Below are positions 3,247 through 8,917 of a stretch of DNA of 64,000 nt, one piece after another. The notes beneath the pieces were generated by a model. It was not told the origin of the DNA and did no database searches. It saw only the letters and a program-made list of their open reading frames with translations. The position numbers and the translations under genes were made by a program. The stretch lies in assembly GCA_009845425.1 (NCBI GenBank), contig VXZQ01000014.1, forward strand, positions 207,783-271,782, written 5' to 3'. This DNA comes from Holophagales bacterium (GTDB lineage: Bacteria > Acidobacteriota > Thermoanaerobaculia > Multivoradales > Multivoraceae). The number at the start of each line of letters is the position of its first letter. Positions within the stretch are counted from its first letter, which is position 1.

Positions 3247-4383
3247 ATGGATCCGCTGCACGAACAGATGAGGTCCTGGCGCCGGGACTTCCACCGACAC
3301 CCCGAGCTCGCGTTCGAGGAAGTAGAGACCAGCCGCAAGGTGGCGGCGCTGCTCGAGTCGTTCGACGGCATCGAGGTCCACCGCGGCCTCGCCGGCACGG
3401 GCGTCGTCGGCGTGCTGAAGTCCGGCTCGTCGGAGCGCAGCATTGCACTCCGCGCGGACATGGACGCGCTGCCGATCGAGGAGGAGAACGAGTTCGAGCA
3501 CCGCTCGCGGAACCCCGGCAAGATGCACGCCTGCGGCCACGACGGCCACACGGCGATGCTGCTCGGAGCGGCGAGGCACCTGAGCCGGAACCGGACCTTC
3601 GACGGCACGGTCTACTTCTTCTTCCAGCCCGCGGAGGAGAAGGACGGCGGCGCCCGCGTGATGATCGAGGAGGGCCTGTTCGAGCAGTTCCCTGCCGAGG
3701 AGGTCTACGGCGTTCACAACTACCCGGGAATGGAGGTCGGCAACTTCGGTCTGTGCGCCGGGCCGCTGATGGCCGCGATCGACGTGTTCGAGTTCGCGGT
3801 GACCAGTGCCGGCGGCCACGCTGCCTTCCCTCACGGCACGGTCGACCCGATCCCGATCGGGGCCGAGATCGTCCTCGCCCTGCAGACGATCGTGGCCCGC
3901 AACGTGGACCCGCTGCATAGCGCGGTGATCACGGTGGCCCGTGTCCATGGCGGTCACGCGGACAACGTGATCCCAAGCCGGGTCGTTCACGGCGGCTGCG
4001 TCCGGGCGTTTCTGCCCGAGGTGCAGAAGCTGGTCGAGCGGCGGATGCGCCAGATCGGCCGCGGCATCTGCACCGCCCACGGCGCCGGCTTCGAGTTTCA
4101 GTACCGCCACTACTACCCGGCCACGGTGAACCACGCCGACCAGACCGAGAAGGCGGCCAACGCCGCCCGCGAAGTCGGCAAGGAGGTCACCACCAGCCTC
4201 GCCCCCGTGATGGGTTCCGAAGACTTCGCCTACATGCTCCAGGAACGCCCCGGCGCCTTCATGTTCCTCGGCAACGGCGAAAGCGCCGGCCTGCACACCC
4301 CGCGCTACGACTTCAACGACGACGTCCTGCCCATCGGCATGCGCTACTGGACCACGCTCGTCGAGACGCAGTTGTCCGCGTAG
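3247..4383 (+). CDS. M20 family amidohydrolase (N-acyl-amino-acid / hippurate hydrolase-like)
   Basis: PELAFEE...HACGHDGH...M20D peptidase motifs. Start at the ATG at 3247 (MDPLHEQ); upstream ORF extension is low-complexity. Confidence 0.85.
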   Translation: MDPLHEQMRSWRRDFHRHPELAFEEVETSRKVAALLESFDGIEVHRGLAGTGVVGVLKSGSSERSIALRADMDALPIEEENEFEHRSRNPGKMHACGHDGHTAMLLGAARHLSRNRTFDGTVYFFFQPAEEKDGGARVMIEEGLFEQFPAEEVYGVHNYPGMEVGNFGLCAGPLMAAIDVFEFAVTSAGGHAAFPHGTVDPIPIGAEIVLALQTIVARNVDPLHSAVITVARVHGGHADNVIPSRVVHGGCVRAFLPEVQKLVERRMRQIGRGICTAHGAGFEFQYRHYYPATVNHADQTEKAANAAREVGKEVTTSLAPVMGSEDFAYMLQERPGAFMFLGNGESAGLHTPRYDFNDDVLPIGMRYWTTLVETQLSA

Positions 4384-4400
4384 CGTCGTCGGTATCACCC

Positions 4401-4582
4401 GCCCGGCACGGGGCCGCAGGGGGAGGGGTTCCCTGCGGCCGTTCGCGCTCGGTCGGATGATGGGCAGTGGGCGCTCACTTCACTCCGCTCGCTTCGGTTG
4501 GTCGGTGCTTGCCGTCAGGTCGCCGGGAGTCGCTCGCTGCGAGCCCGCAGGGCACCCCTCCCCCTGCGGCCCCGTGCCGGGC
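4401..4582. repeat. Large hairpin: 36-bp near-perfect inverted repeat (4401-4436 / 4547-4582) with a ~110-nt spacer
   Basis: gcccggcacggggccgcagggggaggggttccctgc at 4401-4436; its reverse complement gcagggcacccctccccctgcggccccgtgccgggc at 4547-4582 (35/36 match). Lies 18 bp downstream of the M20 gene stop. Confidence 0.8.
4435..4481. repeat. Left terminal inverted repeat (~47 bp) of the putative cassette
   Basis: gcggccgttcgcgctcggtcggatgatgggcagtgggcgctcacttc; its reverse complement is found at 7060-7106 with 2-3 mismatches. Confidence 0.8.
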
Positions 4583-4987
4583 TGGACCTCGTCGGGCTTC
4601 GCGCGCTCCTCTTGTGCTTGCGGTGCGGTGACCGCGATCCGGGCGCGGGTGGCTGTCTCTCGGTGGGATCCTTGTTCTCTCACGGACGCTTGACCACCGG
4701 CAATCCACTGACGGCCGGACACCTGCACGGTGGTCGGGTCACCTGCGGTGCGTTCTCGTGCGGACGACCCGCCTGCTGCGCCCGGGTGGCGCGGTCCCAG
4801 CGGGCTCGGTGCGAGCGGCGCTCGCCTCCCTTCAGAAACCAGAGTCCAACCGACGTGAGAGTCGCTCCGCAAGGGAATCGAAGAGCCTAGCGTCGTAGCG
4901 TCAGGAAGCTGGTAGAAACGGCTGTGCGGGTTCTTATGCCAAGCCAGCACACAGAGAACAGAAACGAGAACGGGGGAGGATGGCCGG

Positions 4988-5410
4988 ATGGTGAATCTAC
5001 TCAGAGAGCGGGGCTGGTTTCGAGACGTGGCTGCGGACAAGCTACTCCTCGAGACGGTTGAAGGCTACGGCATGGTGCTGGAAGCGAAGCTCGCCGACAT
5101 GGCCGAGGAGTACGCTGAGCTAGAGCCACTGGGGAACGCGGACGGTATGCTGCAGAGCTGGTGGGAGGGCGTTGAGGAGTTGATCGAAGCTGGCTTGGTC
5201 CGCAACAAGGCTCCCAAGGAGTATGCGTTGACACATGAGGGCCGAGTTCAACTCCACAGTCTTCGGGCTTCCGAGAAGCAGCAGAAGAGCTTGGAGCAGC
5301 AGCAAAGGAGCTTGGAACTTGGTCTGAAACGGCTAAGCGTGGCTCTCTGGGCTCTCGGCGCGAGTGCTCTCTTTGGGTTGCTAAACATCGCTTTACAGTG
5401 GATGGACTGA
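4988..5410 (+). CDS. Hypothetical protein, helical with C-terminal transmembrane anchor
   Basis: 140 aa. GGGGAGGA Shine-Dalgarno 7 nt upstream of ATG 4988. C-terminal hydrophobic helix LSVALWALGASALFGLLNIAL. Located in the low-GC segment. Confidence 0.55.
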   Translation: MVNLLRERGWFRDVAADKLLLETVEGYGMVLEAKLADMAEEYAELEPLGNADGMLQSWWEGVEELIEAGLVRNKAPKEYALTHEGRVQLHSLRASEKQQKSLEQQQRSLELGLKRLSVALWALGASALFGLLNIALQWMD

Positions 5411-5432
5411 ACGGTACGCGGGGATCCCCCGT

Positions 5433-5451
5433 CCGGCCCCGGAACGGGGCC
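5433..5451 (+). terminator. GC-rich stem-loop downstream of the 4988-5410 ORF
   Basis: ggcccc-ggaac-ggggcc (6-bp GC stem) about 25 nt after the stop codon. No U-tract, as is common in high-GC genomes. Confidence 0.25.
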
Positions 5452-5829
5452 AAAGGGACTCGGCTAGCTGACGAAGCAGGCGCGTCTTCGGGGTCAGCTC
5501 GCTCGTCTCGTCGAAGCCATGTGCAGTCCTCGCGTCCCTGAGCCTCCGATCCCTTGATGGATGCCGGGCCCGTTGTCACAGAGGCTGCGCTTGGTCTCCC
5601 ATGTTCGCCGCGTCCACGGAGCTGTTCTGGCTGTTGACCGAATCCTGTATGCGGCGGCGAGCCGACTCAGGGCTGCATGCCTGTGTGTGACGGCGACCGC
5701 AAAGCAGACCACGGGAAGCCCATAGCCAGATGACGATTCCCGGATGGCGCTATGATGCGTTGCCTCGCCGGCACGCCTAGCCCGGATGGCGAACCGCACT
5801 AGACACCGAATGCGCGTGGAGTAAGCACT

Positions 5830-6879
5830 ATGCCGCGTCTCTTCGTCCTCATGCCCTTTTCGCCGGACCTCGAGCCCGTCTATGAGCGCCTCTTCAAAGA
5901 GCCATTCGAGAAAGCTGGTTACGACGTGAGCAGGGCGAAGGACATCGACAGCCAGCGGAACATCCTTGAGGACATTATTGAGTCTGTACGGGATAGCGAT
6001 CTGATACTAGCGGACCTTACAGACTTGAATGCCAATGTGTTCTATGAACTAGGAATCGCACATGCCTTCGACAAGAATGTGGTTCTAGTCAGCCAAGAGA
6101 TAAGTAGCTTACCTTTCGATCTGCAATCCTACCGCGTCGTTCGCTACAGCACCAGCTTCACCGAGATGGAAGAAGCCGTCCAACACATGGAGGACCGTGC
6201 GCGGAAGATCATCTCCGGCGGGATGAAGTTCGCCAATCCAGTTGCGGACTTCGCGGACTCGGTGGCTTCACCTTTCGCGGAAGCGGAAGAGGAGGACGCT
6301 CCAACTGAAGAGGACGAGGACGAGCGTCGCGGCATTCTGGACTTTCAGGCTGACTTCCTAGAGAACGTGGAAACCCTCGGAGCCCTGGTTGGCGACGGCA
6401 CCAAGCGAATTGAGGGTATGAGCGAACGCGTTTCGGCTGCCAACGAACGCATCACGGGAGTCGAGTTCGGCCAGCCTAGTCGGCAGCGTCGGACGATTCG
6501 GGACCTGGGATTCTCCCTGGAGAAAGACGCGGCATGGTTCAAGGACTTCGGTAGCAGATACTACGATGTGCTGGCGGAAGTAGAAGATGCTGTCGTCGGA
6601 ATGTTCAGCACTAAGAGGCACCTTGATGGGGAGAGCCGGGAGGAGTTGATTCTATTCATAGATGTGACGGAGAAGACAGAAAGCCAACTCTCGGATGCAG
6701 CGGCCAATTTCCAGAGCCTGATAGCGGCGATTGACGGAGTGCCGAAGATCGAGCGCAGGTTTGACCGAGGCAGTCGTGCACTGGCAAGAGAGCTTGAGAC
6801 CTACATAGACAACATCGAGTTGTCGATTGCTGTCATAACGAGATCAAGAAACCTGGCCAAGAAGATGTTGGGTGACTAG
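5830..6879 (+). CDS. DNPH1 (Rcl) / nucleoside 2-deoxyribosyltransferase-like N-terminal domain fused to an acidic linker and a ~190-aa helical domain of unknown function; candidate nucleotide-targeting defense effector
   Basis: N-terminus ...LILADLTDLNANVFYELGIAHAFDKNVVLV...PFDL... parallels the DNPH1 core (VVAEVTQPSLGVGYELGRAVALGKPILCL) including the catalytic-type YELG Glu. Acidic linker EAEEEDAPTEEDEDE. Lowest GC in the window (~47%). Confidence 0.6.
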   Translation: MPRLFVLMPFSPDLEPVYERLFKEPFEKAGYDVSRAKDIDSQRNILEDIIESVRDSDLILADLTDLNANVFYELGIAHAFDKNVVLVSQEISSLPFDLQSYRVVRYSTSFTEMEEAVQHMEDRARKIISGGMKFANPVADFADSVASPFAEAEEEDAPTEEDEDERRGILDFQADFLENVETLGALVGDGTKRIEGMSERVSAANERITGVEFGQPSRQRRTIRDLGFSLEKDAAWFKDFGSRYYDVLAEVEDAVVGMFSTKRHLDGESREELILFIDVTEKTESQLSDAAANFQSLIAAIDGVPKIERRFDRGSRALARELETYIDNIELSIAVITRSRNLAKKMLGD

Positions 6880-7059
6880 GGACTGGCCCGAGCAGTCGGC
6901 TTGGGGCGGATTGGGAAGACCGGGTTCTTGTCGCCGGACGGGCCAGCCTGACTGTCTGAGACTGGTGTGTGTTGGGGGAGCAGTTTGGAGCGCTCCCTGG
7001 CCGTTGTGCGCCGAAGGTGCGTGCGATCTTCGCCACTTCGGCACACGCAGAGGAAGGAA

Positions 7060-7106
7060 GAAGTGAGCGCCCACTCCCCATCGTCCGACCGAGCGCGAAC
7101 GGCCGC
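7060..7106. repeat. Right terminal inverted repeat (~47 bp), reverse complement of 4435-4481
   Basis: gaagtgagcgcccactccccatcgtccgaccgagcgcgaacggccgc; followed (7107-7140) by a degenerate copy of the 36-bp hairpin repeat. Confidence 0.8.
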
Positions 7107-7169
7107 CTGGGACCGCGCCCCCCGGACTCTCGGCAGGCGGGTGCTACTACCGCCGCTGCGCCGTCGGTG

Positions 7170-8075
7170 CTACGCGCAGTTGCAGAGTTCGATGAAGAAG
7201 GCGCGGACGGTGTCGAGGAACTCGGGAGAGCTCAGGGTGGTCATGTGGTTGGCGCCTTCGATGACGTGGAGGCGGTGCTCCTTCATCACGTCGACCAGGG
7301 CGTCGGCGTTGGGCTTCAGGGGATCGTCGCTGCCAATGATGTTGAGGGTCGGCACCTTGTTGATGCGGAGGAGTTCGGCGTTCACGTCGAGGGCGGGCAT
7401 GCCGCGGACGACGGCTGCCAGGGCCATCTGGTCGTTCGCGGCGACCATCGCCTGGCCGATCGCCTGAACCTGTTCAGGGGTCGGCGGTTCCTCGCCGGGC
7501 CACAGGAACTCGACGAGAGGGCCGCCGCCCTTTCCCGCCTCGAGGGAGGCGGCCAGCGCGTCGAACATCGCGTCGTCGCGCAGTTCGGGGCTCGGCCAGC
7601 CGGCGCCGCCGACCACGGCGGACATGAGCCGGTCAGGTGCCAGGGCGACGAGCTTCATCGTGATGAAGCCACCCATCGAGTAGCCGACGACGTGGGCCTG
7701 CTGCAGCCGCAGATGATCGAGCAGGTCGACGACGTCCAGAGCCATCCGTTCGCCGTAGCTCGCGGGGTCGTGGGGCTTGCCGCTCATGCCGTGGCCGCGC
7801 TGGTCGACGGCGATGACCTGGAACTCCTCGGCCAGCCGGCCGATGATGCCGGCGGCGCCCCAGTTCGAGGCGGCGGTGCCGGTAATGCCGTGAAGCAGCA
7901 CGACCGGGTCGCCGCGGCCTTCGACGACGTAGTGGATCTCGACGCCGTCACTGGCCGTGAACGACCGGGTCGAGGCTTCGCCTTGCGCGTGAGCGCCGGC
8001 GAAGGCGACTGTGAGCACTAGCGCCGCCAGGACGGCAGCGAACATCGACCGCGGTTTCTTCGTATGGATCATCAT
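7170..8075 (-). CDS. Secreted alpha/beta hydrolase
   Basis: Signal peptide, HG oxyanion box (VVLLHG), nucleophile elbow GYSMGG. Start chosen at MMIHTKK (8075). Confidence 0.8.
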   Translation of the reverse strand: MMIHTKKPRSMFAAVLAALVLTVAFAGAHAQGEASTRSFTASDGVEIHYVVEGRGDPVVLLHGITGTAASNWGAAGIIGRLAEEFQVIAVDQRGHGMSGKPHDPASYGERMALDVVDLLDHLRLQQAHVVGYSMGGFITMKLVALAPDRLMSAVVGGAGWPSPELRDDAMFDALAASLEAGKGGGPLVEFLWPGEEPPTPEQVQAIGQAMVAANDQMALAAVVRGMPALDVNAELLRINKVPTLNIIGSDDPLKPNADALVDVMKEHRLHVIEGANHMTTLSSPEFLDTVRAFFIELCNCA

Positions 8076-8131: not shown

Positions 8132-8917
8132 ATGGACATCGAGAGCGCAGCACGGCGCGTCCGCGAAGACGGCTACACCGTCGAGCCGGACTTTCTGAGC
8201 GAGGAGACGCTGGAGCGGTTGCGCCGTGATCTCGCGCCCGTCTTCGAGGCGATCGGCAGCCGGATGACGGACGACTACGGCCAGCAGACGATCCATACGC
8301 ACAACCTGCTGGCCAAGACGCGGGCCGTCGACGAGCTGCTCATGGACGATCGTCTGCTGGGGCTGGTGGAGGCGGTGCTCGGCCCCGATTACCAGGTCTC
8401 CGGCGTCGCCGCGATGCGGCCCGGACCGGGAGACCGTCCCCAGCGGATGCACCAGGACGACGGCCACTATCCGCTTCCGCGCCCGCACGTTCCGCTGATC
8501 GCCAACACGCTGATCGCCCTCGATCCGTTCACGGTGGAGAACGGGGCCACGGAGATCGTTCCCGGCAGCCATCGCTCGGCCGATCCGGTCGATCCCGACG
8601 TGCCGACGTTGACGGTGGAGATGCCGGCCGGGGCGCTCTTCCTCTGGGACGGCGCCGTCTGGCACCGGGGCGGCGGCAACTCGACGCAGAGCGGGTATCG
8701 ACGCTCCCTCAACTTCAACTTCAACCTGGCGTGGCTCAAGCAGCGGGAGAACCAGTTCGTCGGCGTGCCGTGGGAAGTCGTGGTGGAAATGCCCGAGAAG
8801 CTGCAGGCGTTGATCGGTTACAAGCTGACCAACCGCGGTCTGGGCACGGTGGACTACCGCAACCCCATCGAGACCGTGAAGCGGCGGTTGGCGGAGACAA
8901 GGGGGATGAGCAGATGA
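8132..8917 (+). CDS. Phytanoyl-CoA dioxygenase (PhyH) family Fe(II)/2-oxoglutarate oxygenase
   Basis: PhyH-like HxD...H pattern (MHQDDGHY ... VWHRGGGN). Confidence 0.75.
   Translation: MDIESAARRVREDGYTVEPDFLSEETLERLRRDLAPVFEAIGSRMTDDYGQQTIHTHNLLAKTRAVDELLMDDRLLGLVEAVLGPDYQVSGVAAMRPGPGDRPQRMHQDDGHYPLPRPHVPLIANTLIALDPFTVENGATEIVPGSHRSADPVDPDVPTLTVEMPAGALFLWDGAVWHRGGGNSTQSGYRRSLNFNFNLAWLKQRENQFVGVPWEVVVEMPEKLQALIGYKLTNRGLGTVDYRNPIETVKRRLAETRGMSR

Follow-up and report, generated by a model that had tools for sequence, protein, structure and literature searches.

What is the function of a solitary gene that lies on a short inserted segment and encodes a nucleoside 2-deoxyribosyltransferase (NDT)-like domain joined to a helical domain of no recognized family? 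This question is raised by a 64,000-nucleotide stretch of contig VXZQ01000014.1 (positions 207,783 to 271,782 of the forward strand) from the Holophagales bacterium assembly GCA_009845425.1. The whole stretch is hereafter called the window and the gene in question the focal gene; the coordinates of the features are collected in Table 1. Our reading, which we regard as on balance the probable one, is that the focal gene encodes a stand-alone conflict effector consisting of a single polypeptide, most likely anti-phage and of the abortive-infection type, in which an N-glycosidase head is combined with a regulatory or assembly bundle and which was acquired on the insert.

An identical protein is annotated as a 'hypothetical protein' in the Holophagales metagenome-assembled genome GCA_009838785.1 (contig VXQW01000013.1, 929,637 bp), and an NCBIfam search with the focal protein returned no match. 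An AlphaFold2 model of the full-length protein, built on 60 homologues (predicted local distance difference test score [pLDDT] 87.6; predicted template modelling score [pTM] 0.75), displayed three parts: a Rossmann-like N-terminal domain (N-domain), a disordered acidic linker and a confident four-helix bundle (C-domain). An acidic linker had been noted in a preliminary description made from the sequence alone; its acidic run is indeed present at residues 151–165, and the model is disordered there (Table 1). In the 60-sequence alignment of the family, both the sequence and the length of the linker vary, and the position of the start codon of the focal gene is shared with the homologues.

A predicted N-glycosidase head

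The N-domain was modelled as a five-strand Rossmann-like alpha/beta domain with a parallel sheet (residues 1–128) followed by a conserved F-x-N-P-V-x-D-F segment. When this domain was compared with the PDB using Foldseek, the structures retrieved were NDTs, DNPH1, the CMP N-glycosidase BcmB and the TIR domains of SPARTA and SARM1, with target-normalized TM-scores of up to 0.76 for DNPH1. A profile of the N-domain also matched DNPH1 among PDB sequences (E = 7e-4), with the YELG of the family aligned on the YELG of DNPH1. The sole Pfam match of the focal protein was PF05014 (Nuc_deoxyrib_tr; E = 1.5e-5, 25.5 bits), for which the N-domain alone scored 27.3 bits; the same model was matched by all 28 N-domain relatives tested (best E = 5.8e-8), and many other members of the family carry a precomputed PF05014 assignment. 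Weak extra matches to CAP12-PCTIR_TIR and TIR_2 were found in 10 and 9 of these 28 relatives, respectively, and PADLOC gave a partial match of residues 42–114 of the focal protein to a TIR effector model (E = 1.8e-8). No significant match of the focal protein to the profiles of the TIR family (clan STIR, TIR-domain NADases) was obtained.

Among 60 full-length relatives, the invariant residues were M8, I45, A61, L63, N67, N69, V70, Y72, E73, L74 and G75, and further H78, P95, F96, D97, L98, Y101, R102, Y106, P137 and D140. In 80 more distant relatives that contain the N-domain only, N69, V70, Y72, E73, L74 and G75 were again invariant and N67 nearly so. The motif quoted in the preliminary description corresponds to residues 58–87. 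Structure prediction and profile searches, which that description had proposed as checks, pointed to no unrelated fold and recovered the conserved Glu; its Rossmann-like domain with a catalytic-type Glu is accordingly retained. We assign the N-domain to the NDT/DNPH1 fold, in which the invariant Glu73 of YELG aligns to the DNPH1 nucleophile and catalysis is predicted. The parallel that had been drawn with DNPH1 itself held for the fold and for this Glu; it did not extend to the phosphate loop of DNPH1, which is absent, and the nearest family is that of the ThsI-like heads described below. The likeness to DNPH1 therefore appears to lie at the level of the superfamily only. In DNPH1, a Tyr enforces 2'-deoxy specificity (PMC11204291).

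Relationship of the head to a Thoeris effector

In type VIII Thoeris systems, the TIR protein ThsB makes cyclic ADP-ribose (cADPR), which activates the effector ThsI, described as 'CMP hydrolase and TPR'; these systems conferred protection against T2 and T6 on E. coli, and in some cases ThsI and ThsH effectors belong to a single TIR operon (bioRxiv 10.64898/2025.12.03.692087). Using tblastn against plasmids, we found matches to the N-domain within proteins annotated 'TRAFs-binding domain-containing protein'. A homologue of 447 aa on a plasmid of Agrobacterium sp. MA01 has an N-domain of 37% identity (BLASTP E = 6e-17) with the motifs FVLMPF, ADLTxxNANVFYELG and PFD, continues into a MAP3K_TRAF_bd/TPR-S region, and is encoded among TIR_2, ThsB_TIR and SLATT genes. 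We also searched with the ThsB of the tested Yersinia type VIII system, taken from Table S1 of the same study (bioRxiv 10.64898/2025.12.03.692087; see also its Table S2). An E. coli IncP plasmid encodes a ThsB that is 56% identical to it, and the gene immediately 5' of this ThsB encodes a TRAFs-binding-domain protein, whose head aligned with the N-domain profile at an hhalign probability of 98.8% (E = 1e-16, 129 columns). Because of this match to a ThsI-like head beside ThsB, we classify the N-domain by sequence as a ThsI-type head, the link running via a ThsI-like protein whose neighbouring ThsB is related, at the identity given above, to the tested one.

No TIR gene was found in the insert or its flanks, three TIR seed sequences matched nothing in the 64-kb window, and no TIR gene adjoined the homologues in the 12 distinct neighbourhoods with per-gene Pfam annotation. 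The focal protein likewise gave no TPR-S or MAP3K_TRAF_bd match in Pfam. Membership of the focal gene in Thoeris was rejected, as it has neither a TIR partner nor TPR-S.

The Agrobacterium plasmid presented a further observation (NZ_CP045855.1, 28487–38843). A cluster that adjoins the ThsI-like gene and the SLATT gene encodes a TIR_2 protein, one region of which is weakly TGT-like, together with a 'DNA lyase', a QueC-like 7-cyano-7-deazaguanine synthase, a ThsB_TIR protein and a carbohydrate kinase, and may be a composite Thoeris/7-deazaguanine-type defence locus.

A four-helix module shared with other effectors

Modelled alone, the C-domain reached a pLDDT of 91.2 and a pTM of 0.84, with helices at residues 169–209, 216–260, 267–303 and 309–348 (37–45 residues each). 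Its conserved features are a starting G-x-L-D, N241 in helix 2, R338, and E308 after helix 3, where the family consensus is P-x-I-E-R-x-x-N-R. No Pfam, NCBIfam or specific PDB match to this domain was obtained, in agreement with the earlier account of an all-helical domain of about 190 aa with no signature. A specific structural relative was sought and rejected, since the sequence and fold searches gave only generic long helical bundles at 5–13% identity (MCP signalling domain, designed bundles, FlgN-FliJ, MukF, STAT coiled-coil and prefoldin). A word-indexed protein search with the C-domain alone as query returned nothing.

We then computed a profile from 20 C-domains and searched 1.84 billion cluster representatives exhaustively. 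This search detected 565 proteins (cluster representatives) at E ≤ 1e-10, of which 127 were at E ≤ 1e-30; nearly all of them are proteins of about 350 aa with the domain at about 165–350 and the architecture of the focal protein. Other arrangements were also observed. P0302 (511 aa), the only protein of its architecture among the 150 best matches, combines two transmembrane (TM) helices, ThsA_Macro (E = 1.6e-45) and the C-domain (E = 3.5e-33), and its gene lies directly 3' of a ThsB_TIR gene (ena:ERZ25069412:ctg819600_2x_l, 5445–7536; locus L094). The dense defence island around P0302 also contains HTH_3/Peptidase_M78 (ImmA/IrrE-type), DEAD helicase+MZB, GmrSD, SEFIR/TIR and an MmeI-type enzyme. 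P0216 (579 aa) has a pair of zinc ribbons and, after them, the C-domain twice in tandem; in P0271 (458 aa) and P0248 (421 aa), a TM segment and an unannotated region flank one copy; and in P0280 an HTH_3 domain precedes the usual two domains. Judged by these architectures, the C-domain behaves as a mobile module. Each domain of the focal protein occurs separately in a Thoeris-type effector, and their combination here has no TIR partner.

These relationships raise the possibility of an effector that is activated in trans by a messenger of the cADPR type or an ADP-ribose conjugate, produced by TIR or other proteins encoded elsewhere in the genome, with the helical domain or the head itself as the receptor. 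Both domains are found in Thoeris effectors that react to signals produced by TIR proteins, and the sharing of one TIR operon by ThsI and ThsH shows that a signal can serve several effectors. However, the lack of an adjacent TIR gene in the window and in the 12 annotated neighbourhoods, the solitary occurrence of the family across many phyla, and the fact that four-helix bundles are not known to act as receptors of such signals led us to consider this explanation unlikely.

The roles of the two domains could also be reversed, with the NDT-like head serving as a non-catalytic sensor of a ligand or nucleotide, in the manner of SLOG and Macro domains, and the bundle killing the cell, for example through filaments or membrane perturbation. 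We give this arrangement little credence: the complete nucleophile motif is invariant in more than 140 sequences, as it would be in an enzyme, the bundle is highly charged and has no hydrophobic segment, and P0302 already possesses two TM helices able to act as its effector. A regulatory or assembly role of the bundle is favoured because it is also attached to an effector that has a Macro sensor and a TM part, in which a second sensor would be redundant.

Acquisition on an inverted-repeat-bounded insert

The focal gene lies on an insert of about 2.75 kb (roughly 4390–7140) in the intergenic segment given in Table 1. In three related metagenome contigs (L177, L178 and L179), the same flanking genes for leucyl-tRNA synthetase, Peptidase_M20, hydrolase and PhyH are present at 85–93% amino acid identity, the stop codons of the M20 and hydrolase genes are only about 25–40 bp apart, and the insert and its repeats are absent. 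These empty sites indicate that the whole 2.75-kb segment, repeats included, is an insertion. All contigs with an identical hydrolase carry the island, and the empty site was seen in relatives with 85–87% identity.

The composition of the segment is also distinct. The 1-kb GC minimum of the window (0.56) falls at 6–7 kb, compared with 0.64–0.74 elsewhere, and the GC fraction at third codon positions (GC3) is 0.66 in the focal gene and 0.70 in a second open reading frame (ORF) of the insert, ORF140, compared with 0.89–0.94 in the flanking host genes. A repeat search identified inverted arms at 4419–4481 and 7060–7122 (63 nt, 89%), within which blastn delimited a core of 47 nt at 96%, the only such pair in the window; gapped alignment lengthened the repeats to about 90 bp. 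From the empty sites of the relatives, together with the inverted repeats and an atypical GC3, we conclude that the focal gene was horizontally acquired on an inverted-repeat-bounded insert. The preliminary description had proposed such a segment of foreign composition, and the GC minimum, the GC3 values, the repeats of about 90 bp and the empty sites in close relatives all bear it out. It had also called the gene cassette cargo, which stands as far as a horizontally acquired insert is concerned; the insert should not be taken as an integron cassette, as no integrase or transposase was found in it. No transposase or recombinase ORF and no mobility or replication gene was found in the insert, and no target-site duplication was seen. 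No integron integrase or recurrent cassette structure turned up, with no search aimed at attC or IntI, and the repeats that bound the insert on its two sides are inverted with respect to each other, unlike a single attC.

Distribution and neighbourhoods of the family

A word-indexed protein search found 781 relatives of the focal protein, none of them named. Scanning one genome per species revealed at least 596 loci, of which about 35 are full-length and the rest contain the N-domain only. The full-length loci are distributed over Acidobacteriota (Holophaga foetida, Geothrix), Latescibacterota, Chlorobi, Nitrospira, Dehalococcoidia, Ignavibacteriota, Paenibacillus, Clostridia, spirochaetes and proteobacteria. 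Plasmids, phage records and viral contigs yielded only the N-domain, which is joined there to other, mostly unannotated regions. No account of this two-domain architecture turned up in either PADLOC v2 or the searchable literature, in agreement with the earlier remark that no defence family with it was known.

In the 80 N-domain-only proteins, the partner regions mostly had no Pfam match. Single fusions of the N-domain to cNMP_binding, TIR_2 and HEAT_2 were observed, and in one locus (L036, 9068–11077) a single ORF of 670 aa fuses an AbiEii nucleotidyltransferase toxin domain (E = 2.7e-45) to the N-domain family. Temperate Streptococcus phages (Javan/SM1/315.2) and the Staphylococcus phages SAP-26 and UPMK_2 (H28–H50) encode unannotated N-domain proteins of 27–32% identity (phrog_3634 and others, function not annotated), which may be prophage-borne defence or counter-defence genes.

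The gene could in principle serve mobile elements and not the host, either as a counter-defence enzyme that destroys immune nucleotides or in addiction or exclusion. Relatives of the N-domain occur commonly on plasmids and viral contigs and in temperate phages of the two genera named above, and the focal gene itself rides on an inserted element. However, neither the best 80 viral loci nor any phage or plasmid record contained the two-domain architecture, genes for mobility or replication are lacking from the insert, and defence genes are themselves common on prophages and plasmids. We accordingly assign this explanation only a small probability.

We clustered all against all the 392 ORFs within 6 kb of 35 full-length loci and found no conserved partner gene; recurrent neighbours were limited to lineage-specific synteny and DNA methyltransferases. 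In two loci (L001, L004), and by synteny in a third (L008), a type III restriction–modification (RM) system lies immediately 3' and an HTH-Peptidase_M78 gene 5' of the homologue. ImmA/IrrE pairs also lie close to homologues, Peptidase_M78 and DUF4411 are neighbours in L002, and in L007 the homologue lies between a D12 methyltransferase and an inovirus prophage. The two closest homologues (51–54% identity) lie, respectively, beside HsdS and an AAA_15/21 ATPase and beside N6_Mtase, RE_MamI and an HTH gene. For 27 further loci, we scanned the 159 ORFs within 3.5 kb in aggregate. Pfam matches included MmeI_Mtase (4), N6_Mtase (3), N6_N4_Mtase (2), D12 (2) and HSDR_N (2), as well as C5 methylase, Eco47II, ParE, rve, IstB and phage integrases, and PADLOC detected type IIG enzymes (E down to 0), a type I methyltransferase, IetA and DrmD. 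The homologues are thus often found beside RM or other defence genes and not in housekeeping operons, which was the context that the preliminary description had asked to see checked. A PhyH-family dioxygenase gene is located near the focal gene (8132–8917 in the window) and also directly 5' of a 39%-identical homologue in an unrelated genome (L002, 8653–9576); this shared neighbour is probably a coincidence.

These data also bear on the possibility of an ordinary enzyme of nucleoside or nucleotide salvage, a housekeeping protein of the NDT or DNPH1 kind. Metabolic NDTs and DNPH1 are the best fold matches of the N-domain. However, close relatives with the flanking genes lack the gene itself, its codon usage is atypical, its homologues occur in variable, RM-rich neighbourhoods with no nucleotide-metabolism operon in the annotated loci, and the protein has an extra conserved helical domain of 184 aa and is missing the phosphate loop of DNPH1. 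We regard a role in salvage metabolism as very improbable in view of the neighbourhoods, the codon usage and the existence of empty sites.

Proposed mechanism and its weak points

The mechanism that we infer for the stand-alone effector, from catalysis to phenotype and defence role, would run as follows. The N-domain, as a member of the family of ThsI-like type VIII Thoeris heads, would act as an N-glycosidase in which the invariant Glu73 of YELG serves as the nucleophile that cuts the base–ribose bond of an abundant nucleotide. Candidate substrates are NAD+, nucleoside or deoxynucleoside monophosphates (NMP/dNMP) or a related compound, and the nucleotide pool would be drained or corrupted as an outcome. 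The four-helix bundle, held on the flexible acidic linker, would be a regulatory or assembly module that keeps the enzyme off until infection and activates it by oligomerization. In NDT-family and TIR enzymes, active sites are completed across subunit interfaces.

Several points weigh against this reading. The focal family has no known activity, substrate or phage phenotype, and the role of the bundle is argued only from the architecture and from the logic of domain sharing. The PF05014 score of the focal protein is below the gathering threshold of 28.8 bits. The phosphate-binding loop of DNPH1 (GSIRGG) is not present, the equivalent segment after strand 1 being LMPFSPD, and the substrate of DNPH1 is therefore not transferable to the focal protein. 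For ThsI itself, manipulation of the nucleotide pool was only hypothesized by the authors (bioRxiv 10.64898/2025.12.03.692087). In the window, no other recognized defence gene lies beside the insert; two homologue loci (L005, L006) have no clear defence genes; and RM components lie within a few kb in about 10–14 of the 35 loci, an estimate made without a matched background control.

A bolder version, which we put forward tentatively and consider decidedly less probable than the effector reading itself, is that the family is a hitherto unrecognized, widespread and self-contained immune sensor-effector whose bundle detects a phage cue directly and drives the ThsI-type heads into an active oligomer. 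If this were true, it would reveal both the chemistry of the ThsI class and a new activation module, with a bundle that is shared with some Thoeris type II effectors. In any case, the focal family presents a ThsI-type head in a one-gene format without a signalling partner, which makes it simpler for work on substrate and activation. The four-helix domain, which the profile search detected in at least 565 sequence clusters, could serve bacterial immune effectors generally as a module for assembly or regulation. Cultured strains also carry homologues, namely Holophaga foetida DSM 6591 (L015), Geothrix alkalitolerans (L013), Paenibacillus koleovorans (L020) and Bowmanella yangjiangensis (L011), so that experiments are feasible.

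Other features of the insert

Table 1. Features of the focal gene and of the insert that carries it (window coordinates)
Feature	Coordinates	Strand	Remarks
Focal coding sequence	5830–6879	+	349 aa; ORF present as in the preliminary description
N-domain	5830–6258	+	aa 1–143; Rossmannoid fold of the NDT/DNPH1/MilB-TIR superfamily, classified as ThsI-head type
Predicted active-site motif	6028–6054	+	N67-A-N69-V-F-Y72-E73-L-G75; E73 codon 6046–6048
Disordered acidic linker	6259–6324	+	aa 144–165, EAEEEDAPTEEDEDE; pLDDT < 50 at 144–147 and 150–164
C-domain	6325–6876	+	aa 166–349; antiparallel four-helix bundle in AlphaFold2 models
GGAG Shine-Dalgarno-like motif	5818–5821	+	8 nt 5' of the ATG; read off the sequence
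Intergenic segment	4384–7169		Between convergent Peptidase_M20 and alpha/beta-hydrolase genes
Left terminal inverted repeat	4392–4481	+	Core 4435–4481; absent from empty sites
Right terminal inverted repeat	7060–7149	-	Core 7060–7106; absent from empty sites
Hairpin element	4398–4585		188 nt, 41-nt arms, 95% complementary; overlaps left repeat
Co-acquired ORF140	4988–5410	+	140 aa; called as a gene in public assemblies

The hairpin at the left end folds as DNA with an energy of –78.7 kcal/mol (z = –7.3), and its inner part is the sequence that recurs inverted as the right repeat. It could be an element resembling a miniature inverted-repeat transposable element, or a recombination site. No further copies of the inverted repeat were found in the window, and its 23-mer did not occur in JGI metagenome contigs.

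ORF140 is separated from the focal gene by a non-coding gap of 419 bp, and its product weakly matches a winged-helix family (HTH_45, E = 0.044) and contains a coiled segment rich in Gln and Glu and a hydrophobic helix at its C terminus. We rejected it as a conserved partner, because no homologue was present in 87 related loci and the remainder of the island, with the focal gene set aside, had no match in about 186 other loci. Rfam gave nothing credible for positions 4000–7500 and no tRNAs were found there; scans of the island for sigma-70 promoters and terminators also gave nothing.

Comparison with known systems

ThsI of type VIII Thoeris has a head of the same family as the N-domain (31–37% identity, via ThsI-like proteins), and the ThsI-like heads and the N-domain share RAD, AD(L/I)(T/S)xxNANxxYELGxxHA, FDL and Y. 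In ThsI, the head is combined with a TPR-S/MAP3K_TRAF_bd sensor, the gene adjoins that of the TIR protein ThsB, and cADPR is the trigger; the focal protein has the four-helix bundle instead, its gene has no TIR neighbour, and no trigger is known for it. Among the effectors of type II Thoeris (two TM helices and Macro; ThsA_Macro PF20016), the variant P0302 shares the four-helix domain at the C terminus with the focal protein, but its N-terminal part is TM and Macro and not NDT-like. The NDTs, DNPH1/Rcl and MilB/BcmB (PF05014, clan Nribosyltransf) show a sequence identity of only 12–22%; they differ in that the focal protein has an added helical domain, and their context is metabolic whereas that of the focal family is of the mobile, defence type.

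Swarozyc is a DUF4062 TIR-like NADase with helical stalks (bioRxiv 10.64898/2026.05.01.722283). It resembles the proposed effector in design only, as a single protein in which a glycosidase head of the TIR/NDT superfamily on a helical stalk is autoinhibited and is activated in a higher-order assembly; both the head family and the helical domain are different. Membership of the focal protein in the DUF4062/Swarozyc group was rejected, as no DUF4062 match was found at E ≤ 10.

Retron-Eco1 (Ec86) uses an NDT-superfamily domain as an anti-phage effector and needs a reverse transcriptase and multicopy single-stranded DNA. The focal protein has a domain of the same superfamily, and a retron effector was rejected on the grounds that the insert contains no ORF of reverse-transcriptase size, the annotated homologue loci contain no reverse transcriptase gene, and the Rfam search described above gave nothing. 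Attack on the nucleotide pool by enzymes of the NDT/TIR superfamily is an emerging theme in immunity, as represented by Thoeris, retrons, Swarozyc and SARM1. Against this background, the defence precedent of the head family (ThsI) and NDT-like effectors in retrons are already known, and the most original component of the focal protein is its unannotated four-helix module.

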